This document shows positions 8,357 through 64,000 of a DNA stretch of 64,000 nt, in pieces (position 1 is the stretch's first letter; each line of letters begins with the position of its first letter). The notes beneath the pieces were generated by a model. That model had not been told where the DNA came from. It was given only the letters and a program-made list of their open reading frames with translations, and made no database searches. The stretch is from Pristiophorus japonicus (taxonomy: Eukaryota), in the NCBI RefSeq assembly GCF_044704955.1, contig NC_091979.1:317254001-317318000 (forward strand), in the 5' to 3' direction. Position numbers and translations under genes: made by a program.

Positions 8357-8552
8357 CCCGGCAACTGATGATGCAGCTCGCAGTATTTGTCTGATTGGAT
8401 AGTTCAATGTTTGGAAAGTTTATTTCGGCACCAACACAAACTCTCCCCGTGTCTTTTCTACCCGGAGCTTGCTGACTCACAGCCTGTTTTTATTGTAATT
8501 GGAGACAAATATACCCTCGAACCAATCAGTTCGGAGGAGTCTGAGTGTAAAA
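8357..8552 (+). promoter_or_regulatory. Putative MHC promoter: two X1/X2-Y modules, CCAAT box and TATA-like element
   Basis: CCCGGCAACTGATG (8357-8370), 20 nt, then CTGATTGG (8391-8398). Second module CCCGGAGCTTGCTGACTCA (8461-8479) with ATTGG at 8498; both have 37 nt from CCCGG to ATTGG. CCAATCAG at 8522-8529, TGTAAAA at 8546-8552. Confidence 0.72.
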
Positions 8553-8586
8553 CACTCTGCACTGGGCAAAGCGCACGAACAGATAG

Positions 8587-13019: not shown

Positions 13020-13115
13020 GAATCACACGGTCTGAATTGGGCGCAGCTCACGGACGGTCTCTCGGAAAAGGATTGCCTGCAAACTGCTCATCCCAGCCTG
13101 TCGAGGGAAGTAACA

Positions 13116-14183: not shown

Positions 14184-14424
14184 GGCTGATCCCGAAGTGA
14201 AGTTCACTGGGACTAGAATCTGGACTTGCTGTGTCGCAAGGAGGGTTCATTCAGAAGCAATCCACGATTCTGCATCTTCATTTCGTTTGATTGTCACTGG
14301 CTGCTGCCAGTGTTAATAGTAATCGGTAATGTATCTATCATTGAGTGGGTTTGGGGATATTTTCTTTTTGGTGATTGGATAGAAATCTCCAGTTGGGTCT
14401 TTTGGTGTTTAATGTAAATGAGAT

Positions 14425-23943: not shown

Positions 23944-24722
23944 CTACAAGAGTTCAATCAAAAGGTGGAAGAACACAAATTAGTTGAACAAGCATTGCAG
24001 AAGTCCCCTGATCTTCCATATGTAACTCGTTACGCAGCAAAATTTTACAGAAGAGAAGATGTGGAAAAAGCTGTGGAGCTGTTGAAGAAAGCATTAGAAA
24101 TTAGCCCAAACTCTACCTTCATACACCACCAAATAGGTCTGTGTCACAGAAAAAAACTACGTCAACTGATCAAATATCCAGGCAGCAAAGACCCTCGCAA
24201 TCCTGCTTTTCAACAGAAAGCTGAGTTGATCAAACTATGCAAGTACTAGTTTGAAAAGGCATTTGAGCCCCGCCCATTAACATCTATTGCAGCACAACTG
24301 GATTTTGCAAGAATCTGTATACTTGATGAAGAATATCCTGAAGCAGTGAAGATCACAGCAATCTAATGAAATTAGAATATATTCATCCAGAAAATAAGCA
24401 GAAAATATGTTTACTGGCTGGGTTATTTCAACTGAACCAGAAAAGATCGGAACCAGATGCCATCAGCCATTTTCTGGAAGGTGTCAAAGTTAAATATGAC
24501 TCAATACTACGGAAAAAAGTGTTGCAAACATTTGAAGAAGATAGCAGAAAGACGACTTTGCATAAATTCAAAAGACAGCAAGGCCTTTGGTGTTCTTGGG
24601 TTACTGCACCAGCTGGATGGGGAGAAGTGTGAAGCTATTGAGTGCTTTGAAAAGGCCTTGGAGTTTGATTGTGACAATGAAGAATATCTAAGTGTTCTCT
24701 CTGAATTACGCCTTTCTATATC
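23944..24722 (+). pseudogene. IFIT: IFIT pseudogene 2, 5' half missing
   Basis: Starts at LQEFNQK directly after the CR1. TAG at 24247-24249, frameshifts near 24355 and 24515, terminal stop altered. Colinear with about 55678-56460. Confidence 0.93.
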
Positions 24723-32627: not shown

Positions 32628-33362
32628 CCCCATTCCCCAGTCTCCCTCTCCCCGAGCACCCATTCCCCAGTCTCTCTCTCCCCGAGCCCCCATTCCCCAG
32701 TCTCCCTCTCCCTGAGCCCCCATTCCCCAGTCTCCCTCTCCCCGAGCCCCCATTCCCCAGTCTCTCTCTCCCCGAGCCCCCATTCCCCAGACTCCCTCTC
32801 CCCGAGCCCCCATTCCCCAGTCTCCCTCTCCCCTAACCCCCATTCCCCAGTCTCCCTCTCCCCGAGCCCCCTTTCCCCAGTCTCCCTCTCCCCGAGCCCC
32901 CATTCCCCATTCCCCAGTCTCCCTCTCCCCTAACCCCCATTCCCCAGTCTCCCTCTCCCCAAGCCTCCATTCCCCAGTCTCCCTCTCCCCGAGCCCCCAT
33001 TCCCCAGTCTCCCTCTCCCCAAGCCCCCATTCCCCCTCTCCCTGAGCACCCATTCCCCAGTCTCCCTCTCCCCGAGCCTCCATTCCCCAGTCTCCCTCTC
33101 CCCGAGCCCCCATTCCCCAGTTTCCCTCTCCCCGAGCCCCCATTCCCCCTCTCCCCGAGCCCCCATTCCCCAGTCTCCCTCTCCCCGAGCCCCCATTCCC
33201 CAGTCTCCCTCTCCCCGAGCCCCCATTCCCCAGTCTCCCTCTCCCCGAGCCCCCATTCCCCAGTCTCCCTCTCCCCGAGCCCCCATTCCCCAGTCTCCCT
33301 CTCCCCGAGCCCCCATTCCCCAGTCTCCCTCTCCCCGAGCCCCCATTCCCCAGTCTCCCTCT
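32628..33362 (-). repeat. G-rich 30-bp minisatellite, array 3 (inverted)
   Basis: Reverse complement of the unit in arrays 1 and 2. Confidence 0.95.
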
Positions 33363-33590
33363 TTCCTCCACACTTGATTTTCTTCGATTTCAGAGTACCC
33401 CACTTTCAGAGCAACCCCCGTTTTGAAAGACACAAAATTTCAAAGCCCCCTAAATTCAGAGAACAGGGGGCCGGTCACAACGTGCTGTGTCTCCCTGTGC
33501 CCCCCCGCCAGCCCCCGTGTCATCCACCCCCTGCCCGCGATTTTAACTACCAGGTTTTTGGGGATAGTATAATTCAACTAAGTTCCAGAT

Positions 33591-33762
33591 GGGAATTATC
33601 AGACATGGTCAGTTTCACTTTCACTTTCCAGTTTCAGGAACCATTTCCTCAAAATCAGATGATTCCGGAGGCTATAAAAATATCCGGGAAGAAAAAGCTT
33701 GCAGTGTTCCGGCTGATCGGCGAACTGAGGTACCGGTGACATCCAGACCAGCATCCTGAGGT
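33591..33762 (+). promoter_or_regulatory. Orphan interferon-stimulated promoter (tandem ISRE + TATA) with an IFIT exon-1-like donor
   Basis: AGTTTCACTTTCACTTTCCAGTTTC at 33611-33635; TATAAAAA at 33673-33680; kB-like GGGAATTATC at 33591; CAGCATCCTGAG|GTCAGT at 33760/33761. Confidence 0.75.
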
Positions 33763-34129: not shown

Positions 34130-37100
34130 AAGGCTGTGCCCAGGTTTAATGAGGCGTCTCTGGATGTGTTGCTGGGTACAGTAAGGGCAAGAAATGAGTC
34201 CTGTTTCCCAGCAATGGTAAAAAGAAAGCTGCAGCCACTTCAAAGAAGTTGTGGCTGGAAGTGGTGCAAGAAGTAAGCAGCAGGAGCCTCATAATGAGGA
34301 TATGGATTCAGTACAGTGTAAAGTCCTGTCCCCTCGGTACAGATTCACACGAGGCATGAAGTGAAGTCAAGGTCACTCTGGACCTGCACCTTTTATTTCA
34401 CAGCTCTGGAATGATGCACTTTCCTGAGACCTGTCCTTATATACCTGTCTCTTGCAAGTGTACACCTGGTGGTAAGGTATGCTGGTGGTTAAGGTCATAT
34501 CTTATTACAGTCATGTATAGCATGTTAGGATACAGTTATATATAATAATGTAAGATACATGACATCACCCTCCCCCAAGATCTTATTGTCTTTATAGGTT
34601 CAGTCTCTCAGGTGGTCTACGCTCTCGCGTGGAGCGACTGAGTTGTGGTTCAGCTGTTTGCCTTGGTGTCTGTTTTGATTTTTGGGTGTGATTGTTGTTG
34701 ACTCGCCTGGGCTGTCTGTTGGGATTGCCCTTTCCTCAGGTTGTTCCCTCTGTCTGTCCACCAGGTGTGGTGCGAGTTCCACATTGTCGTCTGCCTCTGG
34801 TTCTGCAGTGTTGTTGGTAAATCTGCTTTTTACTTGGTCTACATGCCTCTGGCAGGTTTTGCCATTGTCCATTTGTACTACCAGTAGCCTGTTTCCTTCC
34901 TTGCCCGTTACTGTCCCTGCAAGCCATTTGGGACCCCTGCCATAGTTTAGTACAAACACTTTGGCCCCTATCTCATTCCATTTCACCCTCGAATTTCTGT
35001 CATGGTATTCAGTCAGCTTACAGCGCTTTGCCTCAACGATTTCGTGCATGTCTGGGAGGATTAATGAGAGCCTTGTTTTTAAAGTCCTTTTCATCAACAG
35101 TTGCACGGGGGGGGTCCCAGTCAGTGAGTGCGGACGAGATCTGTATGCCAGCAGCAGTCGCGTCAGGCGACCCTGCAGCATGGGACCTTGGATTTTAAGC
35201 ATGCCTTGTTTAATGATTTGCACTGCTCTCTCCGCCTGGCCGTTGGAGGCTGGCTTGAACGGTGCCGTCTTGACGTGATTTATGCCGTGGTCAATTATAA
35301 AGTCTTGGAATTCTGCGCTGGTGAAGCACGGACCATTGTCACTGACCAATATGCCAGGGATTCCGTGCATTGCAAAGATGGTTGCGAGGCTCTCCACGGT
35401 GGTGGAGGTTGTGCTCGAGTTTAAAATGGTGCATTCGATCGACTTTGAAAATGCATCTACAACTACGAGGAATATTTTGCCCATGAATGGGCCGGCATAG
35501 TCTACGTGTACCCGCGACCACGGTTTGGTAGGCCAGGGCCAGGGGCTCAGTGGAGCCTCCCTGGGGGCATTGCTGAATTGGACACAAATGGTGCACCTTC
35601 GGATGCAGAGCTCCAAGTCTGCGTCAATACCAGGCCACCAGACGTGGGATCTGGCTATGGCCTTCATGACAACGATCCCCGGGTGCTCGCGGTGGAGCTC
35701 CCGGACAAATGCCTCTCTGCCTCACAGAGGCATGACTACTCGGCTGCCACACATCAGGCAGTCTGCTTGTAGTGATAGCTCATGCATGCGCCTGTGAAAG
35801 GGTTTTAATTCCTCGGGGCAGGCATCGCGAGCCTCTGACCAGTCACCGGTTAGGACACATCTTTTTACTAAGGATAACGAGGGGTCGCTGGCCGTCCAGG
35901 CTCTGATTTGGCGAGCCGTCATGGGCAAACCTGTGGACTCAAAGGCATTGATTGCCATGACTATCTCACAGTCCTGTTTGTCAGACCCTTCCGTGGTTGC
36001 CAGGAGTAGCCTGCTGAGCGCGTCGGCACAGTTGTCTGTGCCCTATGGTATAGTCGTAGGGTACCAGCATGAGTGCCAACCGTTGAATTCGCGCCGAGGC
36101 GTTGGCGTTTATTGCCTTGCTCTCGGATAGGAGGGATGTGAGGGGCTTGTGGTCGGTTTCTAATGCAAACTTGGCCCCGAAAAGATATTGGTGCATCTTT
36201 TTGACACCGTACACGCACGCGAGCGCCTCCTTCTCTCCCATTCTGTATCCGCACTCCGCCCGCGAAAGTGACCTGGAGGCATAAGCTATGGGTTGTAATT
36301 TGCCCGCACTATTGACATGTTGCAAAACGCACCCGACCCCATACGCTGACGTATCGCATGTGAGAACTAGCTTTTTACCTGGGTCAAAGAAAGTCAAAAC
36401 ACTGTTGGAACACAGAAGGTTGCGTGCCTTATTGAAGGCGCGTTCCTGGGCGACCCCCAAAACCAATCGCACTCCTTCCTGAGTAGCACATGGAGAGGCT
36501 CCAGCAGCGTGCTTAAGTTCTGCATAAAGTTCCCAAAGTAATTGAGTAGCCCGAGAAAGGCGCGCAGTTCTGAGACATTCCGGGGCCTGGGTGCCAGGCG
36601 AATTGCTTGTTTTGGACTCTGTTGGGTGGATTCCATCAGCGGCAATCCTTTAGCCCAAAAATTCAACCTCAGGTGTGAGAAACAGGCACTTGGATTTCTT
36701 GACTCGTAGGCCTACCCAATCGAACCGCTTTCGTACTTCCTCCAAATTACGGAGATGGGAGTCGGTGTCCCTGCCCGTGATAAGTATGTCGTCTTGAAAT
36801 ACAACCGTCCCCGGGATGGACTTGAGCAGACTCTCCATGTTGCGCTGGAATATGGCAGCTGCCAACCTGATGCCGAATGGGCATCGATTGGACTTGAAAA
36901 GGCCTCGATGTGTGTTGATGGTGGTGAGTAGCTTGGATTCCTCGGTCAATTCTTGCGTCATATGCGCAGATGTGAGGTCTAATTTTGAGAAAAGTTTACC
37001 TCCACCCAATGTGGCAAATAAGTCCTCCGCTCTGGGCAGCGGGTACAGGTCCTGTAGGGAGACTCTGTTTATGGTAGATTTGTAGTCCCCACAGATTCGT

Positions 37101-39750
37101 ACGGATCCATCAGGCTTCATGACTGGGACGATGGGACTTGCCCAGTCGCTAAATTTCACGGGTGATATAATGCCTTCCCGCAGAAGCCTGTCTAGTTCGT
37201 GTTCAATCTTTTCCCTCATCACATAGGGTACAGCTCTGGCCTTGTGATGGACCGGTCTAGCATCCTGTGTGATGTAGATTTTGACTTTGGCCCCTTTGAA
37301 AGTGCCCACACCTGGCTGAAAGAGATGTTCAAATCGCTTTATAACTGTTGAGCAGGAGGTCCGTTCCTCTAATGACATGGCATGGGCATCATCCCATTTC
37401 CAGTTTAGTTTTGCCAGCCAGCTTCTCCCAAGCCGTGCTGGGGGGTCTCTGGGGACAATCCACAGAGGAAGTCGGTTCACTGTCACTTTGTGTGTGACAG
37501 AGAACATGGCGCTGCCGAGGACTGGTACGATTTCTTTGGTATAGGTCCTTAGTTTGGTGTCGACCCTTGTGAGTTTTGGTCAGTCTCTTTTATACGGCCA
37601 CAGTAGTTCAACTTGTTGAGTGCCCATGACAGATTGACTCGCTCCCGTATCCAGCTCCATGTTGACAGATATCCCATTGAGTAGGACCCTCATCATTATA
37701 GGAGGAGTCCTGTTGTAGGAGCAGCGGCCATTGATCGTGTTGACCCGCTGTACACCGGTGTCCCGGGTACTGTCCCCACCATCTTCTGGTCCGCTTTCTG
37801 ACCCATCTGATTCGTATACTAGCCGAGCTGCTGTTTTTTTGCGGGCCAAATGCCCTGTATAGTCACAGTTCCTGTAAACAGCCTGCTGAAATCGACATCC
37901 CCTTGCCGAGTGCCCACCCCCACACCTCCAGCACAGACCTGTTCCATTGTTCAAAGTGTTCCCAAAGAATGAGCTGCGTCTGGCTGATCTCTCTTGAGCT
38001 TCTCTCAGTTTATAGTTGATTGTGGGTTGATGAGGTGTGAACGGCCGTTCCTGTGGCCCTTGATGGCTTCTGCCTGCTGTCGAGAGCCTGTTCTCCCGGT
38101 TTTGTCTGTGTGTGGGGATAGCAGCTTGTTTAGTGCTGTGAACTTCTTGTTCCGATATTTCGTTAGTTGTCGTACCTGCATTGTAAATCAACCTCGTTTC
38201 TTCTTCCCCTACCAAGAATGTCTGTGCAACCAGTGCTGCTGCCTCTAAGGTCAGGTTCTTGGTCTCTATGAGCTTTCAGAATATGCCTGCGTGGCCTATT
38301 CCTTCAATGAAAAAGTCTCTCAGCATTTCTCTCCTCAGTTCATCGGAGAACTCACATAAACTGGCCAACCTCCGAATTTCCGCCACGAAGTCGGGTATGC
38401 TCTGGCCCACACAGCGTCTGTAATTGTAGAATCTGTGTCTGGCCATGTGTAGGCTGCTCGCTGGCTTCAGGTGGTCTCTTACCAGTGTGCTCAATTCTTC
38501 AAACGACTTGCTTGCTGGTTTCTTGGGTGCCAACAGATCCTTCATTAAAGCGTATGTTTTCGAGCCACAGCTGGTCAAGAGATGGGTTCTTCTCTTGTCT
38601 GCCTTATCATCGCCTAACCAGTCTTTGGTTACAAAGCTTTGCTGGAGTCTTTCTATAAAGTCTTCCCAATTGTCTCCTACATTGTTCTTTTCATCTGATC
38701 TGTTGTTCGCCATTCTGTGGATTCTGTAATCCCGTAACCCGTCGCCACTGTAAAGTCATGTCCCCTCAGTACAGATTCACACGAGGCATGTAGTGAAGTC
38801 AAGGTCACTCTGGACCTGCACCTTTATTTCACAGCTCTGGAATGCCGCACTTGCCTGAGACCTGTGCTTATATACCTGTCTCTTGCAAGTGCACCCCTGA
38901 TGGTAAGGTATGCTGGTGGTTACAGGTCATATCTTATTACAGTCATGTATAGCATGTTAGGATACAGTTATATATAATAATGTAAGATACATGACATCCA
39001 GGAAGCATTTTAATGACCTAACTTGGTCAGGAAATGTGAGCAAAGTTGCAGATTCACCAACATCCTGTAGTCCATCCCCTCTCACTCGGTCTTGTTACAC
39101 GCACTCCATTCACATCACTCCTCACACCTACTTACATTTCAGCAGCAACCTGCATTCCATTCCAATACAAGGGAGAGGGTGAGGACTGGAAGTGGGCCAT
39201 CACAGACTGTGGAGCTTACCACAGCGGAAGAGGAGGCCTTGGAGATCACCGGCCTCTCTGCCTCTCAGCATCGGAGATGGCCAGAGGTTGCACATTACTG
39301 CAGGGTGACAGAATTCATCTCTCACACCCAAATCCACCTTGTCTCTCCTCCACAGATATCACGTGAAGAACAGGAGCCCCTGCCCGTTGATGGTGAGCAT
39401 TCCTCAGAGAAGCTCATTCCTGCTGAGTGTGCATCGGCAGAGGACACATGCGGGCCAGGCACCAGCGCAGACACAAGCATTTCAGTGGGTCCTCTTAGAA
39501 AGTTAGGTGGGATGTTACCAAGTGAATCGCACTTCACAAGTGAGCACCAGCAGAGAGTGATGGTAGGGATAGCTATAGAGAGACCATGTCGGAGGGCGCA
39601 ATCCTTTCCAAGCTCTGCTCAGCTGGAGAGAGATGTGGAACCTGAGGATTTATCAATGAAAAGGAGAATGACAGAAGGTCAGCAACACCTGTGTGAGGTA
39701 TTGGTAGCCCTGGAGATCCCAGGGCTATCCTGGAGGGTTGGCATCTCAGA
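34130..39750 (+). mobile_element. PIF/Harbinger Myb-like gene remnant interrupted by a Gypsy insertion
   Basis: PRFNEASLDVLL...KKLWLEVVQEVSSRSLIMRIWIQYR|KHFNDLT reads through once 34317-39001 is removed. The right boundary is approximate. Confidence 0.7.
34317..38996 (-). mobile_element. Full-length decayed Ty3/Gypsy LTR retrotransposon (gag-PR-RT-RH-IN)
   Basis: 248-bp LTRs at 34317-34564 and 38749-38996 (TG...CA, about a dozen differences). TSD TACAG/TCCAG. PBS TGGCGACGGG (tRNA-Ser-like), PPT GGGGGAGGG. Motifs LDTGA, FQDD, TDHKPL, HVDYAGP...SDNG...AER. Confidence 0.95.
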
Positions 39751-47377: not shown

Positions 47378-50300
47378 CATCCCCTGAAGTCCCAAGGGAT
47401 CCCAGCATCCCTTGGGAGCACTGTATATAAGCCGACCCTAAGGCCTGTTCCCCACTCTGGAGTGTCTTATTAAAGACTGAGGTCACTGTTACTTTAATCT
47501 CCCTGTGTGCAGCCTCATCTGTATTAGGAACACAATAACTGGCGACGAGAATACGAATCCAATGCAAAGATGCAGCAAACTGTGGGTATCCTGGAGAAGT
47601 TCTCAGAGGGTGAGGACTGGGAAGCCTATGTCGAACGGCTAGACCAGTACTTTGTAGCCAACGAGCTGGACGGAGAAGGAAGCGCTGCAAAAAGGAGAGT
47701 GGTCCTCCTCACTGTCTGCGGGGCACCGACCTACAGCCTCAGGAAGAATCTTCTGGCTCCATTGAAAGTCATATGAGGAGCTGTGCACACTGATTCGGGA
47801 GCATCTTAACCCAAGGGAGAGCGTGCTGATGGCGAGGTATCGGTTCGAAACGTGCCAGCGATCTGAAGGTCAGGAAATGGCGAGCTATGTCGCCGAGCTA
47901 AGGCGACGTGCAGGACAATGTGAGTTTGATGGCTATCTGGAGCAAATGCTCGGAGACTTTTTTGTACTGGGCATTGGCCATTCGACCATCCTATGAAAAC
48001 TTTTGATTGTAGAGACACCGACCCTCAGCAAGGCCATTGCGATAGCACAGGCGTTTATGTCCACCAGTGATAACACCAAACAAATCTCTCAGCACACAAG
48101 TGCTAGCAATGTTCATAAATTAACTGGAACTGTGTTTGCAATCAGAAATGTACAGGGCAGAACCCATGAGTCTGCAACTGCCAGCAGGCCTCAGGTGACC
48201 CAGATGACTCAGAGTCCCCAACAAAGGATGAATGCAAGGCAATTCACACCTTGTTGGCATTGTGGAGGCTTCCATTCAGCCTATTCATGCCGCTTCAAAG
48301 GGTATGTTTGCAAGAGCTGTGGAACAATGGGGCACCTCCAACGAGCTTACAGATGAGCTGCAAGCTCTGCAGAACCTGCTAGCCACCAAATGGCAGAAGA
48401 AGATCGGTCCATGATGGATCAAAGCAATTTCGAGCCTCAGAGAGAGGAGGCAGATGCTGAAGTACACACATTTTCGACAAAATATCCACCTATAATGCTA
48501 AACGTAAAATTGAATGGCTTGCCCGTAGCCATGGAACTGGACACTGGCGCTAGCCAATCCATCATGAGTAAAAAGATGTTTGAGAGACTGTGGTGCAACA
48601 AAGCATTCAGACCAGCCCTGAGCCGCATCCACACGAAACTGAGAACGTACACCCAAGAGCTCATCACTGTCCTGGGCAGTGCCATGGTCAAGGTCACCTA
48701 CGAGGGCACGGTGCACGAACTGCCACTCTGGATTGTCCCGGGCGATGGCCCCACACTGCTTGGAAGGAGCTGACTGGGCAAAATCCGCTGGAACTGGGAT
48801 GACATCCAAGTGCTGTCACATGTCGATGAGGCCTCATGTACTCAGGTTCTTAACAAACTTCCTTCCCTTTTTGAGCCAGGCATTGGAAACTTTTCCGGGG
48901 CGAAGGTGCGGAGCCACTTGGTCCCAGAGGCACGACCCATTCACCACAAGGTGCGAGCGGTACCTCACATGATGAGGGAGAGAGTGGAAATCGAGCTGGA
49001 CAGGCTGCAACGCGAGGCCATCATCTCCCCAGTGGAATTCAGCGAGTGGGCCAGCCCGATTGTTCCAGTACTCAAAAGTGATGGCACGGTCAGGATTTGC
49101 GACGATTATAAAGTAACTATTAATCGTTTCTCGTTACAGGACCAATATCTGCTACCTAAGACAGACGACCTATTTGCGACGCTGGCAGGAGGCAAGACAT
49201 TCACCAAGCTCGACCTGACTTCGGTCTACATGACGCAAGAGCTGGAGGAGTCTTCGAAGGGCCTCACCTGCATCAACACGCACAAGGGACTGTTCATCTA
49301 CAACAGATGCACGTTTGGAATTCGGTCGGCTGCAGAGAAACATGGAGAGCCTACTCAAGAGGGTATCACACACGATGGTCTTTCACGACGACATATTGGT
49401 CACGGGTCGGGACACCGCCGAGCACCTACAAAGCCTGGAGGAGGTCCTCCAGCGACTGGATCGCGTAGGACTGCGGCTGAAGAGGTCGAAATGCGTCTTC
49501 ATGGCAACAGAAGTGGAGTTTTTGGGGAGAAATATCGCGGCGGACGGCATTCGGCCCACAGACGCCAAGACAGAGGCTATCAGGAATGCACCCAGGCCAC
49601 ACAACGTCATGGAGCTGCGGTCGTTCATGGGACTCCTCAACTATTTTGGTAAATTCCTACCGGGGTTAAGCACCCATTTAGAGTCCCCACCCATGTGTTA
49701 TTGCACAAAGGTGAGAACTGGGTATGGGGAAAAATACCAAGTAAATGCTTTTGAGAAAGCCAGAAACATTTTATGCTCCAACAAGCTGCTTGTAATGTAT
49801 AACCCGTGTAAAAGACTTGTGCTAGCATGTGACGCGTCGTTGTACGGAGTTAGGTGTGTATTACAACAAGCTAATGTTGCGGGGAAGTTGCAACCTGTCG
49901 CCTATCCTTCCAGGAGCTTGTCTAAGGTCAAGAGGGCCTACAGCATGATTGAGAAAGAGGCATTAGTGTGTGTATTCGGGGTAAAGAAAATGCATCAGTA
50001 CCTGTATGGCCTCAAATCTGAGCTGGAAACCGATCACAAGCCCCTCACATCACTGTTTGCTGAAAACAAGGGGATAAATACTAATTCCTCAGCCCGCATA
50101 CAAAGGTGTGCACTCTTGCTATCAAGGTATAATTATACCATCCGCCACAGGCCAGGCACTGAGAACTGTGCGGATGCTCTCCGTGGGCTACCATTGCCCA
50201 CCGCGGGGGTGGAAATGGCGCAGCCTGCAAACTTGTTGATGATGGTGCAGCCTGCAGACTTGTTGATGGTCATGGAAGCATTTGAAAATGATAAATCACC

Positions 50301-51913
50301 TGTCACGGCCCACCAGATTTGGATTTGGACTTGGACCAGCAAAGATCTTCTGCTGTCCCGAGTAAAAAAACTGTGTACTGCATGGGAGCTGGGCCAACAT
50401 CCCCGTTGAAATGCAAGAGCCAATCAAGCCGTTCCAGCGGCGAAAGGATGAGCTGTCCATTCAGGCAGATTGCCTGTTGTTGGGTAACCGCGTAGTGCTA
50501 CCCAAAAAGGGCAGGGAGACGTTCATCTCGGATCTCCACAGCACACATCCGGCTGTAGCAATGATGAAAGCGATAGCCAGATCCCACGTGTGGTGGCCTG
50601 GTAGCGACTCTGACTTAGAGTCCTGTGTACGGCAATGCAGCGTATGTGCTCAGTTGAGCAATGCGCCCAGAGAGGCACCGCTAAGTTTGTGGTCCTGGCC
50701 CTCCATACGATGGACGAGAATCCATGTCGACTATGCGGGCCCGTTTCTCGGTAAAATGTTCCTGGTGGTGGATGCTTTTTCAAAATGGATTGAATGTGAA
50801 ATAATGTCAGGAAGCACCGCCACCGCCACCATTGAAAGCCTGAAGGCCATGTTTGTCACCCACGGCCTACCTGACATACTGGTCAGTGACAACGGGCCAT
50901 GTTTCACCAGTGCCGAATTTAAAGAATTCCTGACCCGCAATGGGATCAAACATGTCACCTCGGCCCTGTTTAAACCAGCCTCCAATGGGCAGGCAGAGAG
51001 GCAGTACAAACCATCAAACAGAGCCTTAAATGACAGAAAGCGCACTCCAAACCCACGTGTCCCGAGTACTGCTCAGCTACCGCGCGAGACCCCACTCGCT
51101 CACAGTTGTGCCCCCGGCTGAGCGACTCATGAAAAGGACACTTAAAACCAGACTCTCGCTGGTTCACCCCAACCTGCATGATCAGGTAGACAGCAGGCGG
51201 CAGCAACAAAATGTAAACAATGGTCGTGCCACTGTGTCATGGGAAATTGATCTGAATGACCCTGTGTATGTGCTAATCTATGGACATGGTCCCAAGTGGA
51301 TTGCGGGCAGGGTGATAGTTAAAGAAGGGAATAGGGTGTTTGTAGTCAAACTAAACAGTGGACAAATTTGCAGAAAACACCTGGACCAAACGAGGCTGCG
51401 GTTCACAGACTGCCCTGTACAACTCACAGCAGACACCACCTTTATCGAGCCCACAACACACACCCAAAGGATCAACGTCACCACGCCGGGCCAGGAAATT
51501 GAACACATCACGTCCAACAACCCAGCAAGGCCAGGCTCACCCAGCAGCCCTGCAGGACCAACAACACGCCAGCCCAGCGAGGGCACAGCCAACACACCAG
51601 AACAGACATTTGTACTGACGCGGTCCACCACGGAAATAAAGACTCCTGACCGCCTTGCCTTGTAAATAGTTTTCACTTTGACTTTGGGGGTGGGGGGAGT
51701 GATGTTGTGTATCTGTAAAGCATGTACTCCCATGTTCCGCCACTAGGGAGCTCATCCCCTGAAGTCCCAAGGGATCCCAGCATCCCTTGGGAGCACTGTA
51801 TATAAGCCGGCCTCTAAGGCCTGTTCCTCACTCTGGAGTATCTTATTAAAGACTGAGGTCATTGTTAATTTAACCTCCCTGTGCGCAGCCTCATCTGTGT
51901 TAGGAACACAATA
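47378..51913 (+). mobile_element. Decayed Ty3/Gypsy LTR retrotransposon related to 34317-38996
   Basis: 5' LTR remnant 47378-47537 (first ~50 bp missing); PBS TGGCGACGAG at 47540 (tRNA-Ser-like); CCHC gag, LDTGA, FHDD, RH and IN motifs; PPT at 51686-51702; 3' LTR 51703-51913. Confidence 0.93.
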
Positions 51914-52640: not shown

Positions 52641-55007
52641 GTAACGGTCATTGGAATTCCTCCTTTATTTAAATTTACGTGTAGACTATTGAACAAGGAA
52701 CTAGTTTTCAGAAATAAAGTAGCTTACATTACAAAGCAGTTGAAATGCAGAGAGCTGGGATTAGTGGTTCACAGTGAGACACACAGATAAGGGAACACTG
52801 CTGCACCAAGACTGGTGATAGTCAGTAAACATGAGGCAAAAGGCAGACCTGTTCATAGGATTATATTCAGTAATAATTCAAATTACAATTAAAATTGGTT
52901 TCTGTTCAGAATTCATAGAAAGTACAAAGTTAATCTTGAATATTATACTGTGGTGGAAAGGCGCATTCTGTAAGTGCCCTTAGGTCATATCCAGAGTTTG
53001 AAGAAAGAAAGTTTCACTTTGTGTTCCATGGGAATCTAGAAGGGACCTACTAATGTAAAATAGTGATTTCCAGCACTTTCATATATCCAAACTAAAGCAA
53101 CCTGAACTATAAAGCAAAGGGAGAGTACAGCATGGACTGGGATGGGGGAATGGACACAGCATGAAATGCAGGAGGAGAGTGCCAGCTTAAAGTGTGTAGG
53201 AGAAGGAAAAGTGCTGACTTACATTGAGAATGGGGGCGGGGGAGAAGAGTGCTGACATGAACTGGGGGAAAGGACAGGTGCAGCAGTTTGAACGGAGCAG
53301 CAAAGGGAGGAAAGCCACCATGAACTGGGGCAGGGGTAAGAATGACAGCTTGGATTGTGGGGGGAGGGAGACGAGAGCCAACAGGAACAAGAGGCCGGCG
53401 GAGTAGAGTGCAAGGAGAAGCTGGGATGGCTGGGGGATGAAGTGTATCGACGTGAGTTTAACAGCAAGGAAGAAAGAATTTGTGTTGATGTAACACCTTA
53501 TCACACCTCTCAGAAATGTCCCAAAGTGCTTCACATTCAGTGAATTATTTTGCAGTGCAGTCAGTTGTTTTGTCGGGCAATGTGACAGCTCAGTTTGCAC
53601 AACAACAACTGGCATTTATATAGCGCCTTTAAACATCCCAAGGCTCTTCACAGTAAATTAATCAGACAACAATGGACACCGAGGCAAAGGTGGAGATATT
53701 TAGAAGGCTGACAAAAAGCTTATTCAAAGAGATAGGTTTTATGGAGAGTCTTAAAGTGGGATAGTGAGGTGGCAAAGTTTAGCTGAAGCCACGGCCAACA
53801 TTGGTGTGTTAGGTGGAGGATGGACACGAGCCCAAGTTGGAGGAATGCAGAATTCGCGGAGGATCTGTTATTGGTGGTTTTGCTTGAGGGAAGAATATTG
53901 GAAAATACATCTCCTTGCTTTTCTTCAAATAGTGCCATTGAATCTTTAAGGTCCACCTGAACCACTTGAACAGGCAGATACTGCCTTGGCTTAAAATCTC
54001 ACCTGTATGGTGAAAGATTTTCAGCAGGATAAGAGTCAGTTCATGAAACATGGTCTTTCAGAATCCTTTGTGTTGGACCTTCTTTTTTGCTTTAAGGGTA
54101 GGATTACAGAGGATTACATAGGATACACAGCACAGAAACAGGCCATTCAGCCCAACCATGCTGGTTTATGCTCCACTCGAGCTTCCTCTTGTCTTTCCTC
54201 AGCTAATTCTATCTGCATAACCCTCTAATCCCTTCTCCCTCATTTGCTTACCGGGTCTCCCCTTAAATGCATCTATAGTATTTCCTTCAACCAGTCCCTA
54301 TGGTCGCGAGTTCCACATTCTCACCGCTCTCTGGGTAAAGAAGCTTCTTTTGAATTCCCTATTTGATTTCTTGGTGTCTATCTTATACTGATGGCCTCTA
54401 GTTTTGCTCTTTCACAAAAGAGGAAATATTCTCTCTGTAAGCACTCTTATCAAAACCTTTCAGAATTTTAAAGAACTTCAATTGAATATTGGAGTTGGAA
54501 TGATCTGGCTCACAGACAGCAGGGTCCATGAGGGTTCCTGTTCAGTGGAGAGTTACCTGGACTGCCAATGTGAGACGGAGAGCATTTTAGAATTAGCTCT
54601 GATCTTTTTAGTGAGGAGCTCCCATTTCAGAATGGAATACATGAATGAGAAGGAGATGTAATGGGTGAACCAACAGGCAGCCTCAGAACTTCAATCAATG
54701 TTCCTGTTCATATCATTGGGAGTGGAAGTGTTTGAGGTGATGCTGCACATTGGGTGAGAAGACTAAATGTCCAGGAGCTGGTACATCAGCCAGCATGAAG
54801 GAGACCAGTGTAAGTACAGCTGAGATTTGCAGTCATACCGTTGCCTTTTGCAATGGTTTTAGCAGAGGTCACCTTTGTGTGACCAGAGATTTCATGGTCA
54901 GTGGGTCCAGGAGTCGGGAGAAGGCTTTAGTTAAAGAAACCGGAGAGAGGGGAGGGGGTGACACAGCCAGTCTGAGATGGGTTTTGATGAATTTTGTTCT
55001 CTTGCAG

Positions 55008-56460
55008 CAACACACAGAAAGATTTGTTGAAAGTGAAGCTCGATCAGCTTCAATGTCACTTCACATGGGGCCCACAGAAAGAAAACATTGACTTGGACAA
55101 CATGAAGTATAGATTGCAAGATTCAATACAGGCTGGTGTGGAATATCAGGCCAGGTCTTACAACCACCTCGCTTTTGTAAACTGTCTGCAAGGCAACTGT
55201 GAAGAGGCAATTCAAAACTTAAAGGAAGCTGAAAAGATTCTGGGGGAGAACCATGAACATGAATTTGAAAGAAGAAGCATCATCACCTATGGAAACTATG
55301 CCTGGGTATATTATCACATGGGCCAACTGACAGAGGCCCAGTCCCACCTCGACAAGCTGGAGATGATCTGTAAACAATTTACTGATGGCTCTCGGTATAC
55401 AGCACTGATACCTGAAGTATACGGGGAGAAGGGTTGGTCACTGTTGAGTTCTGCTGCTCAATACTATGAAGAGGCAAAGGAATGTTTTGAGAAGGCTCTG
55501 GAGGAAGATCCTGATGACACTGAATGGAACGTTGGCTATGCGACTGTTCTGTTCCGTCTGGAAGGGTTTTCTGGTACCCCAGAGAGTGGTGACCGCAGCC
55601 AATCAGTGAAGCAGTTGCGACGTGTGCTGGAACTTGATCCAGATGACTCTGTAGCCATGGTGATGTTGGCTCTAAAACTACAAGAGTTCAATCAAAAGGA
55701 GGAAGCACTGAAATTAGTTGAACAAGCATTGCAGAAGTCCCCTGATCTTCCATATGTAACTCGTTATGCAGCAAAATTTTACAGAATTAATGGAGATGTG
55801 GAAAAAGCTGTGGAGCTGTTGAAGAAAGCTTTAGAAATTAGCCCAAACTCTACCTTCTTACACCACCAAATAGGTCTGTGTTACAGAAAAAAACTATATC
55901 GACTGATCAACAATCCAGGCAGTAAAGACCCTCGCAATCCTGCTTTTCAACAGAAAGCTGACTTAATCAATAAATGCAAGTACCATTTTGAAAAGGCATT
56001 TGAGCCCCGCCCTTTAACATCTATTAAGCCACAGCTGGATTTTGCAGGAATCTGTTCATTAAATGAAGAATTTTTCAAAGCAGATGCGATCTACAGCAAT
56101 CTACTGAAATTAGAAAATATTCGCCAAGAAAATAAGCAGCAAATATGTTTAGCGGTCGGATTATTTGAACTGCACCAGAAAAGATCTGAATCAAATGCCG
56201 TCACCCATTTTCTGGAAGGAGTGAAAGTCAAATATGACTCAATAGAACGGAGAAGGTGTCACGAAAACTTGGAGAAGATAGCAGAAACACAACTTTGCAT
56301 AAATTCAAGAGACAGCAAAGCCCTTGGTGTTCTTGGGTTACTGCACCAGCTGGATGGGAAGAATTGTAAAGCTATTGAATGCTTTGAAAAGGCCCTGGAG
56401 TTTGATTGTCACAATGAAGAATATCTAAGTGCTCTCGCTGAATTACGCCTTTCTATCTAG
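55008..56460 (+). CDS. IFIT: Interferon-induced protein with tetratricopeptide repeats (IFIT5/IFIT1-like), main exon; 485 aa with exon 1
   Basis: Acceptor ttttgttctcttgcag|; CHFTW, GNYAWVYYHM, EKGW, PYVTRYAAKFYR and HHQIG motifs; open to TAG. Confidence 0.96.
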
Positions 56461-57455: not shown

Positions 57456-59202
57456 CAATGAAGTTCTAAATAATTTAGAAAACTAGGTAGATAGAGGGAC
57501 ACTGATGTCCAAATATATACGAAAAATGTGATTTATTATGATCATCATCTGTTTAGGTGTTTTAACAGCAATGCAGGTAAAGCATTATAGCTGGAGGTGC
57601 ATAAGCTTCAGTGCACTGTGAGCATGTGACTTATACTCTTTTTATGGTAATGATGGTGTAAAAAAATCTCCAATCCAGCCCATAGAGGGTGCAATAAAAC
57701 CACTCTGTCGACCTATCTTTCACTTGCTGCCTCTTCACAATAAAGTCCACCTTCGGGTGAAAGGCTTTCCATGTGTACCAGTTGAGAGAGGACCAACGAC
57801 CACTGCAGGCCCTTCAAATAAATCATCAGCTTGATTCTGTTGCTCTGAAGCTTTGCTGACAGACGATTGGACTCCCATCCAGAGCGTTCATTCAGATCTC
57901 AGCCTCTGTCACTGGGAGTCTCCCTGCCCTGTAACTGGTCAGCTGCACCAGCTCTTCATCAAACCTTCTGTGTCCCTCAGTGGCCAACACAGAGCAGCTT
58001 GGACAATACCCGGGAAAGTCCCTTTTCCAGAGACTGTCACCATCTCTGTGAAGAAACTCAGTCGAGGGAGGAAAGCGAAAGGATCTAGAAATAGGTTAAA
58101 ATGGGAATAAAATATCAAAACACAATGGCTGCAGACACTGATTTTCCCGAGATTTCAATTGTAATTGTAATATCAGAGATTGAACATTAAAATAACCAAT
58201 AAAATTAATCTGTGGCAAAGACTTAGTTTGTGTTGTTGTTATGTATGCAATAAAGGTTCAAACTGAGTACTGTTTAACTAAGCAAGGTACAACCTTGGCT
58301 ATGTTTTATTTAGGCCCAAAATGCCTGACTCTCAAAATCAAGGGGCTATGGCGGGGAGGAACTTAATACAATCACGGTCACTAAAGAAAGAGTACTCGGT
58401 AAAATAATGGGACTAAAGGTGGACAAGTCCCCTGGACCTGATGGCTTGCATCCTCGGGTCTTAAAAGAAGTGGCTGCAGAGATAGTGGATGCATTGGTTG
58501 TAATGTACCAAAATTTCCTGCATTCTGGAGAGGCATACAACAACGAGTGGGGTGCCGCAGGGATCGGTGCTGGGACCTATCTATATTAATGACTTGGATG
58601 AAGGGACCGAATGTAATGTAGCCAAGTTTGCTGAAAGATGGGCGGGAAAGCAAATTGAGAGGACACAAAAAATCTGCAAAGGTATATAGACAGGTTAAGT
58701 GAGTGGGCAAACATTTGGCAGATGGAATATAATGTCAGAAAATGTGAGGTTATCCACTTTGGCAGACAAAATATAAAAGCAAATTATAATTTAAATGTAG
58801 AAAAATTGCAAAGTGCTTCAGTGCAGAGGGACCTGGGGATACTTGTGCATGAAACACAAAAAGTTAGTATGCAGGTACAGCAAATAATCAGGAAGGCAAA
58901 TGGAATGTTGGCCTTTATTGCAAGGGGGATAAATTATAAAAGCAGAGAAGTCCTGCTACAACTGTAAAGGGTATTGCGTGCAGTTTTGGTCTCCGTATTT
59001 AAGGAATTGAATACATGCATTGGAGGCTGTTGAGAGAAGTTTCACGAGGTTGATTCCGGAGATGAAGGGGTTGACTTATGAAGATAGGTTGAGTAGGTTG
59101 GGACTATACTTATTGGAGTTCAGAAGAATGAGAGGTGATCTTATCGAAACATATGATAATGAGAGAGTTCGACAAGTTGGATGCAGAGAGGATATTTCCA
59201 CT

Positions 59203-59406
59203 TGTTAGTGTTAGTGTTTATCCGAAGAATCACTCAACACTCAGAGTCGGTTCCAATGCCAGTGCGGCCTTTATTGATGCCAGCGGGGAGGAAGTCACAG
59301 GACTGGATCCAGGCTTCTCTCCCCGTTGGTGTCAATAAAGACCGCACTGGCATTGGAACCGACTCTGAGTGTTGAGTGATTCTTCTGATAAACACTAACA
59401 CGAACA
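59203..59406. repeat. Palindromic 5' LTR (arms about 59203-59296 and 59312-59406); third arm copy at 63595-63677
   Basis: The arms are reverse complements with few mismatches; each carries AATAAA on its own strand. Confidence 0.93.
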
Positions 59407-59952
59407 GTGGCATCATGAGCAGGATTTCGGGGTCGCTGAACGCTCTTGGAGAAACCGGGTGAGTATATCTTAAACAAAATAAAGGGTGCGGAAGGTGGAT
59501 GCTGATTGATCGACACGAGGAGACGGTCCAATATCTCAAACACCTAGCCTGAGTCTGAATTAAGAGGACTTTAGTCCCACGTGACGGCCAGGAATTAAGT
59601 AGGTGCCGGGAACACACTTGGACCGTGGGATCGTGATACTGAAAGGCATCTTCCGGACCCAACAGTGTAATTTGAAATATACCCTGGGGTAGAACGAAGC
59701 GGTGTACAGCGGCTAACGGAATCCAAACCTGTGAACAGGGTTGGACCAACAGGCTGAGCGGTGGTAGGTAGTTGTTAAGGATACGTAGAGTACTGCGGGA
59801 ATTGCTTAAACTCGTTTTAAGAATTGTATAAGTTTGTGTAACAGCAAAACTTGTGACCTGACAGTAGCCAGGAGACGGTCTACTACAAGTTGCGCTCGGA
59901 AGAAAGCGGACCTCTGAGAGTAGATTCCTAACGGTACTAGTCCTACCCAGGG

Positions 59953-61305
59953 ATGGCCATGAAAACAAGTAACCTCGAGTGGGGACCAGAAGGTCCCTTA
60001 CCCGCCACCTGGCGGAAAAACAAAAGAAGCTCATCGAAAAAAATGATTAGAGCAAGATGGGATCCTCAGGACCTGCCAGCGAAGCAAAGGGAATGGTGGG
60101 AGAAGGAAAAGAAAGACAAAGAGGGAAGGGCAGTAGTTTTGATACTGCGAGCCCATGTAAAGTTAACAGAGAAAGTTAACCAGTATGTGCAAACAAAAAG
60201 AAAGCAAGTAACTGTTGCAAACGGACAGACAGTTTTGCCGGTCCTGACCATAAATAGCCCAAGTGCACCACCTAGTGAGGAAGATTGGGAATGAAACGGA
60301 TAGTTGCGACTCGGTTAAAGGGGACGTCTTGCCACCCCCATATGCCACAATAAACCCGGCCCCGATCGCGCCGCTAAAGGTGGATCGCATACCCGAGATC
60401 CCAGCAGGAGCAAGACGCAATGGCAGTCCCACCATACCCGCACAAACACGAATAACATACACATCGCTGTCCCCCGGGGACACGATGCAGTTGTTAGACA
60501 AACTGCCACCCCTCATACCCCGCCATAACAATGCAACCTTCTGGCAGAAGCTCAAGGAAATGACAAGTTGCCACCAGCTCCACAATCAAGATATCGCTGG
60601 TATAGTTAGGATTAAAATGCCAGAAAACTACTGGGACAGACTACCTAATGATTACCGAAGCGATACCTGGTGTACCGACCTGTCTGCTACTAGGTAACAG
60701 CAGGAGACGAATGTGACACTCGTTCTAGGCCAGGTTCCCGTAAACTGGAACTCTCTAGTGGGAGTAGTGCAGAAGAAGGACGAACGGGCACCAGAGTACG
60801 GGGTTAGGGAATTTGAGGCGTTCTTGACACATCGCGGAGTACCGGACGCAGACTGGCAGAACCCGGCCTTCATACAGTTGTATAAGGACGGACTCAGCTC
60901 TGCACACCAAGCCATCCTAAAAACAGGCTTAGTGGTACATAATCATTTTGATGATCTGGAAAGTTGGGCGACCTCGGTAGACAATCAACAAAGGTCCAAG
61001 ATAGCCGCCAGTACAGCGGAGGTCTGCGCGGCCACCGACAAAAAGGCGGCTGAGACATGCTCCAACTGCAACAAAACGGGACATCGCCGCGCCGAGTGTA
61101 GAGCCCCAAAACGCGACGGACGCAACAAGTGTAGGAACTGTGACCGATTAGGTCACGAGTCAAAGGACTGTTGGGCAAAGGGAGGTGGCAAGGAAGGGAA
61201 GGGACCGCAACGGGGACCTAAAACGGGACAAAACCCCAATGAAAGAGCCCCGGACGTTAGTACCCTCGGAAATCAGCAGCTGCTGGACATTATACAGCAG
61301 CTGAC
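59953..61305 (+). pseudogene. ERV gag (frameshift and stop) with two CCHC zinc knuckles
   Basis: PPPY late-domain motif; CSNCNKTGHRRAEC and CRNCDRLGHESKDC. Confidence 0.85.
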
Positions 61306-61338
61306 CCAGTACAGCGGAGGTCTGCGCGGCCACCGACA

Positions 61339-63198
61339 TAGTGGAATTGCTAAACACCGGGAGGTTAAAAACAGTGTCAGATACGCGACGAGCTACCTGG
61401 GAGGCAGTACTATTACCCAAAGACCAGTCCATACAAGTAATCAGGGATATAGGTTTTAATCCCGCGGAGGGAATAGTGACCGAAGGTGAACCCCATAGCT
61501 GCAAAACTGAGATAGACCAAGGAACGGAAGGGGGAATAGCCGATGAACCTCTGAGCGACCCCAATTTAACCCTTTACATTGATGGGTCCCGACGATCTAT
61601 TGACGGGCAATTCCGCACCGGGTGGGGCGTGGTAGACCAGGATGGTGCCACCCTCCTGTGAGGGGCACTGGAAGGGACAGTGTCCGTCCAAGTGGCGGAG
61701 CTGGTAGCGTTGACCGAAGCCCTCAAATGGGCAAAGGGGAAGCGTGTAAATGTTTATACTGACAGCCGGTACGCATTCGGGGTAGTACACGAATACGTGA
61801 TAGCCTGGAGCAGACGTGGATACATAACTTCAGGGGGGACACATTAAACACGAGAATATAGTTCGGGAATCGGTAAAAGCCGTTAAAAGACCTGCGACGG
61901 CAGCAGTAATAAAGATCAAGGCGCATCAAAGGGTAGAGACCAGGGAACAACGGGGAAACATGTTGGCAGATCAAGCAGCTAGGAGCGCAGCGGAAGAAGA
62001 TGAGCCCCAGATAATTAAAGTGGCCGTGATAGGACCAGGAGAGCTGAATATCCGTAAGGTACAGGAAGAAAGTAGCTCGGAGGAACGGTCGCGATGGGAG
62101 AGCAAGGGGGCTAGCATTGGGGAGGACGGGGTATGGAGAAAGGGATTACAAGTAGTCGCCCCGTCCTCAATCCAGACCGAACTACTCCGGCTACACCACG
62201 AGCCAGACCACACTGGGCGAGACGGAATGCTGAGCCGTCTGCTCAAAGACTGGTGGTGGGCCGGGGTAGGGCGAGACGTAGCCAAACATTGCCAGCGCTG
62301 CATAGTATGTGCACAGCATAATCCAGGCAGACCCATAAAGGTTAAAATGGCACATCAGACACATCCCAGGGGCCCGTGGGAGAATCTACAGATTGATTTC
62401 ACAGGGCCCCTACCCACCAGTCGGGGAAAGAAATACTGCCTGGTCATTATCGGTCAGTTTACCAGGTGGGTTGAGGTTTTTCCCACCCGGGATTGCGGAG
62501 CATCCACGGTAGCGCAGATTCTCGCATTCGACATGATCCCACGGTGGGGAGTGCCCCTTCAAATTGACTCAGACCAGGGGATACACTTTACGGGACAGGT
62601 CATGAAGCGGGCATGTGGTCTGCTTGGAATCCGACAAGGGTTCCACATCCCGTACCACCCCCAGAGCTCGGGAATGGTCGAGCGAATGAACCGTACCCTC
62701 AAGACAGCAATTGCCAAAGCCATAACTGAGACCGGGAAGGGATGGGTGGATGTTTTACCCTGCATATTAATGAGACTTAGGGCTACCCCTAACCGGACCA
62801 CAGGCCTGACCCCCTTTGAATTGATGACGGGGAGGGCCATGAGACTCCCCGAAGGCATCATAACGGGGGGAGAGGACATGGGGCCTTTACGAGATCGGAT
62901 TAAACAATATGTAAAACAATTAGATTCACAGCTAAAGGAACTAAGGAAAGAGGTGCTGGAGCAACAGACCATACGGGACTTGGAGATCCAAAACAAAGGA
63001 AAGGCCGACGCACCCCTCCCACAGGTAGGCGACAAAGTGTTGGTACAAGTCACCCCCGACAGGACGGGGTTTGCCCCAAGGTGGACCGGACCGTATGACA
63101 TCATTTTGACTAGCGACACGTGTGCATGTGTCGACATGAGAGGAAAAGGCCGGTGGAAGCACTGGTCGCAATTAAAAAGGTATAACTCAGAAGGATAA
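61339..63198 (+). pseudogene. ERV pol 3' part: end of tether, RNase H (stop and frameshift), open integrase
   Basis: RRATWEAVLL...FNPA...HSC; YIDGS, QVAEL, YTDSRYAFG, KIKAH...GNMLADQAA; HHCC, LQIDFTG, DSDQG, SSGMVER, WTGPY. Confidence 0.9.
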
Positions 63199-63398
63199 TG
63201 GCTGAACCAAGGGTGATACGCCTAGACGAGACGGAATGGTATGCTGTAAAATACCAGGAGTGGTTGGACACCCTTTTGGAAGGGGTGTTCGGAGGAATAG
63301 CTTTGGCCTTGGTGATAATAGGAGTTTGGGTAATATTTAAGTGGGTAAAGACACGGGCGTACGCCCCACAGATTCAGCTCGAAATGGTTCGATTGTAA
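63198..63398 (+). CDS. Putative ERV accessory single-pass membrane protein, 66 aa
   Basis: ATG overlaps the pol stop (TAATG); TM segment GVFGGIALALVIIGVWVIF followed by KWVKTR. Confidence 0.5.
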   Translation: MAEPRVIRLDETEWYAVKYQEWLDTLLEGVFGGIALALVIIGVWVIFKWVKTRAYAPQIQLEMVRL

Positions 63399-63509
63399 CC
63401 TTGTGCTTCTGATTTCGCAGGGTGACAGGGACATTCGTCGATCAAAAAAAACTTAACTCCTGGTGATGACCAGGCCGTCTGTTTAAAATTACAGATAATA
63501 CTTACCAGA

Positions 63510-63594
63510 ATGGGAATACGAACGGCGCTACTCGTAATATGGATAGCCCTGCGACATGCATGTACCCTGGACAACACCGACGGACAGCAGAGCA
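63510..63594 (+). pseudogene. Truncated env start (signal peptide)
   Basis: MGIRTALLVIWIALRHACT-LDNT follows the acceptor-like ttgtgcttctgatttcgcag (63420) and runs directly into the LTR arm. Confidence 0.5.
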
Positions 63595-64000
63595 CGCTGG
63601 TGTCAATAAAGGCCGCACTGGCATTGGAACCGACTCTGAGTGTTGAGTGATTCTTCTGATAAACACTAACACTAACACCACTCATAGGGGAAACTAAAAC
63701 GAGGGGGCTTACACTCAGAATAAGGGGCTGCCCTTTTAAAACTGAGATGAGGAGGAATTTCTTCTTTCAGAAGATTGTAAATCTGTGGAATTCTCTGCCC
63801 CAGAGAGCTGTGGTGGCTGGGTTGTTGAATATATTTAAGGCGGAGATAGACTGATTTTTGAGTAATAAGGGAATAAAGGATTATGGGGAACGGGCAGAGA
63901 AGTGGAGCTGAGTCCATGATCAGATTAGCCATGTTCTTATTAAATGGCGGAGCAGGCTCGAGGGGTCAAATGGCCAACTCCTGCTCCTTTTCTTATGTTC

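Follow-up and report, generated by a model that had tools for sequence, protein, structure and literature searches.

The provirus and its 5' end

We analysed a stretch of 64,000 nucleotides from the forward strand of the Pristiophorus japonicus genome (contig NC_091979.1, positions 317,254,001 to 317,318,000), referred to here as the window. A host gene of the IFIT family is followed there by a long interspersed nuclear element (LINE), within which lies an endogenous retrovirus (ERV) at 59203-63677, bounded by 5-bp target-site duplications (TSDs; Table 1). Where the long terminal repeat (LTR) of an ordinary copy opens with its unique 3' region (U3), ahead of the repeat (R) and the unique 5' region (U5), this provirus opens with an inverted copy of R and U5 and forms a hairpin. 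We find that this hairpin structure is real and recurrent and that it is not the mark of a new virus family. It is most likely a genomic fossil of a priming route that does not depend on the polypurine tract (PPT).

Table 1. Features of the window provirus and its surroundings
Feature	Position	Strand	Remarks
Host IFIT gene, co-duplicated with the provirus	54991-56460	+	489-aa stop-to-stop frame; best PDB match IFIT5, E 8e-109
Host LINE fragment, left part, split by the insertion	58701-59202	+	extent checked from 58701 only
Left TSD, CCACT	59198-59202	+	5 bp
Inverted complete R-U5, putative minus-strand strong-stop DNA	59203-59322	-	120 nt; 97-99% identity to last 120 nt of ordinary LTRs; 59322 end at predicted cap site
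TAR-like short stem-loop at the start of R (inverted here)	59285-59322	.	contains 28-nt loop 59291-59318; sets the fold-back register
Right arm, putative self-primed copy of remaining R and U5	59323-59406	+	CA end
Primer-binding site (PBS)	59408-59425	+	pattern and sequence comparison
gag, frames broken, zinc knuckles	59941-61459	+	PF00098, E 1.6e-06
Exact 33-bp copy of 61008-61040	61306-61338	+	within junction of 1.7-kb internal pol deletion
End of pol with integrase domains (H2C2, rve, MLV-type C-terminus)	61828-63198	+	Pfam match
6-nt microhomology at junction of internal sequence and R	63595-63600	+	about 2.8 kb absent versus longer copies: most of env, PPT, U3, R start
3' terminus, last 83 nt of R-U5	63595-63677	+	CA end
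Right TSD, CCACT	63678-63682	+	5 bp
Host LINE fragment, right part	63678-64000	+	comparison with uninterrupted LINE copies

The hairpin makes up the first 204 bp of the provirus and is followed by the PBS, which is presumably tRNA-Ser-like. Its arms (59203-59290 and 59319-59406) are 88 nt each, 93% complementary and spaced by 28 nt; a first-pass annotation of the window had recognised the hairpin and given the arms as about 95 bp, a length that counts part of a weaker inner stem. Folding of 59190-59430 as RNA gave -173.9 kcal/mol (z -21.1), which was equalled by 0 of 200 shuffles, and the two-arm pattern matched once in the window versus 0.00 expected from 100 shuffles. The 5' end is composed of the full R-U5 (120 nt) in inverted orientation, fused to the last 84 nt of R-U5. 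A genome search with the hairpin showed its left 120 nt to be the reverse complement of the last 120 nt of the ordinary LTRs, which bears out the earlier suggestion that U3 had been replaced by an inverted R-U5. Poly(A) signals occur on both strands, as had been noted (TTTATT at 59270, AATAAA at 59334 and again at 63605 near the 3' end). The arms differ at six positions. Other copies carry CpG at three of these and not at the other three, so the explanation of the arm differences by CpG decay fits half of the mismatches.

The target CCACT is present once in three uninterrupted copies of the host LINE, which confirms the TSD. These other LINE copies were used because an empty pre-insertion site, sought behind six provirus-free IFIT paralogues, gave no match to the flanking LINE (0/6). 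The CA termini on both strands, together with the short TSD, are those of an integrase-type insertion, in agreement with the earlier view that integrase had joined two identical (U5) ends.

The 3' terminus matches the right arm at 96% identity and the left arm at 96% complementarity; most of env, the PPT and U3 are missing, as are the first 33 nt of R. In the 300 nt upstream of 63595 the sole purine run of at least 7 nt was A8 at 63444, hence no PPT, and the first-pass description of this end as a right-arm copy without PPT stands. The window copy thus departs from a canonical provirus, which has two direct U3-R-U5 LTRs and a PPT. Compared with a longer family member, its pol is 1.7 kb shorter and a further 2.8 kb or so is missing at the 3' end. 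The 33-bp copy at the junction of the pol deletion is gag sequence and suggests a templated insertion during a template switch.

The provirus belongs to an ordinary family

In the 5.9-Gb assembly, searches showed the LTRs of ordinary copies to be direct U3-R-U5 repeats, about 480-680 bp long, with TG...CA ends, a TATA box and AATAAA; these copies also have a PBS and a PPT. Exact patterns matched at least 1,017 ordinary U3|R junctions and at least 1,134 U5-PBS junctions genome-wide, both counts being lower bounds that pool several subfamilies. As controls we used 15 proviruses, of 20 planned, all from one contig and chosen by PBS position alone. None of these 15 had a hairpin, 14 had a full 3' LTR, and one could not be scored.

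The order gag-pro-reverse transcriptase (RT)-RNase H-integrase, with an RT of the murine leukaemia virus (MLV) type, was recovered by similarity only, from the window frames and one longer copy. The RT of the longer copy was nearest to MLV-type RT in the PDB (E 2.9e-107), the next group being protease-RT chains named 'Pr125Pol' (2.5e-55), and the best PDB match of the integrase was a foamy-virus integrase. Pfam domains rve and Integrase_H2C2 in the window frames indicated a DDE integrase and not a tyrosine recombinase. The frame after pol in the longer copy had no Pfam match at E 0.05 and is called 'env' by position only. The window element therefore reads best as what its similarities suggest, a defective provirus of an ordinary class I (MLV-like RT) ERV family, whose exact clade is left loose by the foamy-like integrase. 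With class I (gamma/epsilon-like) ERVs it shares the MLV-type RT, zinc knuckles, integrase, PBS, PPT, direct LTRs and a 4-5 bp TSD; unlike them, about 1% of its copies have a hairpin that replaces the 5' U3, and its integrase is foamy-like.

Many copies of the family are forms of about 5.5 kb without most of gag-pol and with a highly variable U3; two PBS types and TSD lengths of 4 or 5 bp were observed (L035-L042, L117-L121).

The hairpin recurs at independent insertions

The hairpin was found at 15 loci, comprising seven segmental duplicates of the window insertion, which are 98.3-99.4% identical, and eight others on C1, C2, C5, C9, C12 (C12a and C12b) and C14 (C14a and C14b). Counting the window lineage once, these represent nine independent insertions. 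The first-pass annotation would have regarded the hairpin as a one-off rearrangement if other copies had ordinary LTRs; such LTRs are the rule, and the same structure nevertheless stands at nine independent sites. Eight of the nine have their own 4-5 bp TSD (seven exact, one with 1 mismatch), that of C2 being verified against three uninterrupted LINE copies. For the C9 copy, no 3' LTR or end was found within about 30 kb. Hairpin copies make up roughly 1% of PBS-bearing copies, a figure that is an estimate since the hairpin and PBS patterns differ.

Each hairpin bears the U5, PBS and arm variants of its own subfamily. We also built a tree of 32 rows (8 hairpin, 24 ordinary), from which L041, L042 and L121 were excluded as unmatched by the PBS pattern, and L040 and the hairpin copy at C12:187 Mb as having a truncated or deleted PBS. 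In this tree, which is a rough guide because the family recombines, the hairpin label required 6 changes, and monophyly of the hairpin copies was rejected (approximately unbiased test, p-AU 4.5e-49).

Position-blind searches placed the hairpin at the 5' end in 8/8 insertions found. Palindromic solo LTRs, whose existence the annotation had asked about, and full 3' hairpins were both absent from the matches of these genome searches. Among 79 matches of a gap-pattern search, compared as strings, most were other repeats and none showed a new junction register. Several candidates were discarded: two of 13 junction-pattern matches (L059, L060) as chance matches without a surrounding LTR, one of 13 two-arm loci (L109, C1610:6471-6624) as an unrelated palindrome, judged by the matched string, and four of 20 rows of a further hairpin search as non-hairpin. 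The copy on C12 at about 187.08 Mb (L113:7873-8069) has a deletion from the right arm to pol and an intact TSD.

Most hairpin copies end in an ordinary 3' LTR

Five hairpin copies (C1, C12a, C12b, C14a and C14b) have an ordinary 3' LTR with U3. A PPT was seen directly in four of them and was not located in C12b. Because these five copies carry an ordinary 3' LTR, we reject the earlier idea that the window 3' end had lost a 'left arm'. U3 and PPT are absent from three of 8 scorable hairpin copies (window, C5 and C2) and from 0 of 14 scorable controls (Fisher p 0.036), and all three junctions are different.

The junction at 63594/63595 was restricted to the seven duplicates of the one window insertion (7/40 scored matches). 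Whether independent insertions share this junction had been set beforehand as a test of PPT-free replication, which fails as the mode of the family. A retrovirus family with palindromic LTRs that replicates without a PPT might be read from the recurrence of the hairpin with one junction and from the three copies that lack a PPT. Its expectations conflict with the abundance of ordinary U3|R junctions, with the controls (no hairpins, nearly all with a full 3' LTR), with a window 3' junction private to one insertion and with three PPT-less junctions that differ, and we consider such a family very unlikely. The palindromic LTR that the annotation ascribed to the family is accordingly replaced by direct LTRs and a PPT. 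The window 3' end itself is likely to result from a mis-jump in reverse transcription; alternatively, it could be a deletion that predates the duplications.

Two of the PPT-less copies are unusual in other ways. In C5 (L033:4581-4792), the 3' R-U5 belongs to a different subfamily and is joined to the internal sequence at R +2. C2 (L155:7800-7980) is a short hairpin copy; its terminal inverted PBS-U5-R run is accompanied by small duplications and by a tip of 7 nt that resembles U5.

The apex lies at the predicted cap site

All of 15 ordinary LTRs have a G-rich start 30 nt past the TATA box, which opens a stem-loop resembling the trans-activation response (TAR) element. The inverted arm stops at this same site, 30 nt after TATA, and the apex of the hairpin is thus the predicted cap site. 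When the predicted strong-stop DNA of the window subfamily was folded, its terminal C paired with the third base of a G4 run (p 0.72). The paired G is the equivalent of 59287, and extension from this C:G pair reproduces exactly the bases from 59323 onward.

The junction register is the same in 7/9 hairpins. In C12a and C2 it is off by 2 nt, which is compatible with a nearby DNA end. The mis-junctions at the 3' ends of C5, where internal sequence meets R at +2, and of C2, where the inverted PBS-U5-R run ends a few bases short of the cap site, likewise suggest that a DNA end lay where the apex is. Each hairpin would also record, give or take a few bases, where the transcripts of an extinct virus were capped.

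Although its sequence changes between subfamilies, the stem-loop that opens R appears to be preserved in all of them (L157-L171).

The arms have drifted independently since insertion

In the six copies that have three copies of R-U5, private substitutions numbered 4 in the 3' copy, 6 in the right arm and 8 in the left arm. The raw right-arm count was 12; 6 of these stemmed from a double indel in C14a that had been mis-aligned, and they were removed. Each of the three, the two arms and the 3' copy, has accumulated changes of its own, and therefore the hairpin is as old as the insertion itself. Homogenisation of the arms by gene conversion, and an origin of the arms from two different RNAs, were considered and set aside, as there was no excess of changes shared by the arms.

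These data bear on two further explanations. Fold-back chimeras are known to produce palindromes, and the hairpins are known here from assembled sequence, so that an assembly artefact from fold-back reads could be suspected. However, the arms are several percent apart and drift independently, the hairpin ends adjoin TSDs, and the window copy recurs in seven diverged duplicates; we regard an artefact as extremely unlikely. In a chromosomal origin, a normal 5' LTR would be altered at its R stem-loop by fold-back repair or replication template switching, during or after integration. The stem-loop exists in proviral DNA too, fold-back repair generally makes palindromes, and the hairpin copy with a flipped loop described below shows that such ends rearrange. 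Yet this process would need, at each of eight sites, to remove U3 exactly to the TSD and to leave an inverted copy with the terminal CA of U5 as its exact end. Such a process should also hit 3' and solo LTRs, contrary to the 5' position of all eight insertions from the position-blind searches, and it meets no excess of changes shared by the arms and missing from the 3' copy. We consider a chromosomal origin improbable.

A self-primed strong-stop DNA as the proposed origin

During retroviral replication, tRNA-primed synthesis on packaged RNA runs to the cap and yields a strong-stop DNA complementary to R-U5. We propose, at a probability of roughly 0.8, that the hairpin proviruses arose by a recurrent side route in which self-primed strong-stop DNA replaces the plus-strand primer and two U5 ends are integrated. 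The strand-copying steps given here are reconstructed from the observed structure, recurrence, register, TSDs and polyphyly. Synthesis on one packaged RNA would reach the cap in the established manner. The 3' end of the strong-stop DNA, not jumping to the 3' R, would then fold on the R stem-loop, in the register observed at the junction, and prime its own extension, so that the remaining R and U5 are copied. Copying would enter the attached tRNA, as has been seen in cell-free human immunodeficiency virus (HIV) reactions, and would add a plus-sense PBS at the 3' end. The hairpin may next substitute for the PPT-primed plus-strand strong-stop DNA, its PBS pairing with a minus strand from a second RNA; both strands would be completed and the hairpin opened by strand displacement. 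The resulting duplex, with a U5 attachment site at each end, would integrate normally, in line with the 4-5 bp TSDs observed.

This role of the self-primed hairpin in the second transfer would account for several features together: the hairpin is confined to 5' ends and has its apex at the predicted cap site, U3 is missing there, the 3' LTRs are normal, and loss of the PPT is tolerated. The contrast between hairpin copies and controls in the loss of U3 and PPT speaks for the route. A route independent of the PPT could therefore rescue minus strands that lack U3 and PPT after a mis-jump. The product lacks a U3 promoter and so would probably go no further than one round. Fold-back priming had already been raised by the first-pass annotation; it survives as the likely origin and as a recurrent side route, and not as a PPT-free mode of the family.

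Several points weigh against the self-priming route. The self-priming intermediate remains hypothetical, and the position of the cap site is a prediction from TATA spacing and the junctions. The contrast in the loss of U3 and PPT comes from a small test that includes the window copy, picked for this feature. The tree describes a family that recombines, and its bootstrap had not settled. In the C12 copy at 187.08 Mb, the loop is oriented opposite to that of the other eight, which the simple model does not yield. The 3' end of C5 has an extra second piece that bears the hairpin junction and ends exactly at the boundary of U5 and the TSD. In C14a, the right arm differs by two small indels from both the left arm and the 3' LTR. 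These indels fit strict self-copying poorly, and priming may there have occurred on a second strong-stop molecule. The flipped loop, the extra piece and the indels are not explained by the proposed route as it stands; intermolecular priming, later loop inversion or a second copying round could have produced them.

A second copying round is the essence of another explanation, in which hairpin proviruses are re-copied: a packaged read-through transcript is reverse-transcribed and the loop flips each round, giving a small PPT-independent second cycle. This predicts the flipped loop seen in one copy, and it suits the terminal piece of C5, which has a hairpin junction and yet ends precisely at U5 and the TSD. 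Two hairpin pairs (window and C9, C14a and C14b) are also each other's nearest or near-nearest neighbours in the tree. The hairpin copies do not, however, form one clade, their 5' ends are without U3 and TATA box, and the intact 3' U3 and PPT in 5/8 would regenerate, one round later, an ordinary 5' LTR. First-round intermolecular priming or a later inversion between the arms could equally have flipped the loop, and that copy has a deletion starting in an arm. We therefore judge re-copying to be unlikely, and retain self-priming of strong-stop DNA as the preferred origin.

Relation to known systems

Strong-stop DNA of HIV-1 can prime itself, via a cTAR hairpin or terminal C:G pairing, and nucleocapsid suppresses this reaction, according to PMC6088434 and PMC4668388. 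In PMC4668388, cell-free products are reported to arise from 3' C:G pairing and to be extended through U5 to the primer end. PMC6088434 treats self-primed products as dead ends for the first strand transfer and describes them as undetected in endogenous HIV-1 reactions; in virions, too, they are reported as undetected. The two systems are alike in that the 3' end of the strong-stop DNA pairs on internal G runs, and the R of the shark family also opens with a TAR-like stem-loop. They differ in that the HIV-1 product is cell-free and abortive, whereas here it forms the integrated 5' end of germ-line proviruses.

For HIV-1 proviruses with asymmetric LTRs, PMC9278108 proposes a second transfer between two genome copies, which completes a minus strand with a deletion in the 3' LTR region. 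Our proposal likewise involves a second transfer between two packaged genomes. In PMC9278108, however, the donor is PPT-primed plus-strand strong-stop DNA and the 5' LTR is intact, whereas in the shark family the donor would be a tRNA-primed hairpin and U3 is missing.

A different comparison is offered by the shark element's inverted termini and internal complementary copy, which resemble DIRS retrotransposons. DIRS elements have inverted terminal repeats and an internal complementary copy, use a tyrosine recombinase, and show inverted ends throughout the family. In the shark element, by contrast, the integrase is of the DDE type, a tRNA PBS and a TSD are present, and the inverted ends are sporadic.

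A literature search, in which subscription journals and older virology were scarcely covered, returned no integrated provirus in which an inverted R-U5 stands where U3 should be. Older virology includes work on hairpin products of avian retroviruses, and an earlier description of such proviruses is possible.

If the proposed origin holds, a product long deemed a cell-free dead end apparently forms in vivo at about 1%, stands in for the PPT-primed plus strand and integrates via two U5 ends. The hairpin copies would then be a natural record of PPT-independent provirus formation and would lead to a prediction that can be tested in other retroviruses and in existing collections of provirus sequences. 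As formed, the products would be promoterless perfect palindromes of 85-90 bp with poly(A) signals on both strands. We extend this only tentatively, and with more doubt than confidence, to the view that self-primed strong-stop DNA is a general second mode of plus-strand priming (two tRNA-primed starts, no PPT), which would leave U5-U5-ended proviruses in many families of retroviruses and LTR retrotransposons, with occasional re-copying from read-through transcripts accompanied by loop flips, and an embryonic hairpin-ended cycle. If the mode is general, such proviruses would have been overlooked because LTR finders demand direct repeats.

The IFIT neighbourhood and other features of the window

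The IFIT frame ends 2.7 kb before the provirus, which agrees with the distance of about 3 kb given earlier, and an IFIT gene precedes each of the seven duplicates of the window insertion by about 2.7-3.1 kb. The sequence from the IFIT stop to the provirus contains several AATAAA sites. Any effect of the hairpin through double-stranded RNA or on IFIT is a matter of speculation.

The gene is part of a large IFIT array at 316.3-319.6 Mb of C3, which contains 39/40 scored matches; its parts within the window are at 54991-56460 and about 24263-24719. Seven units of the array carry the hairpin provirus, and six close paralogues have neither the provirus nor the flanking LINE at that distance.

Elsewhere in the window, long tandem-repeat arrays at 8500-14200 and 32800-33740 yield spurious open frames. 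Frameshifted Gypsy-like pol frames occupy 48774-51665, and similar minus-strand frames, their identity judged by eye, lie near 34600-37600.

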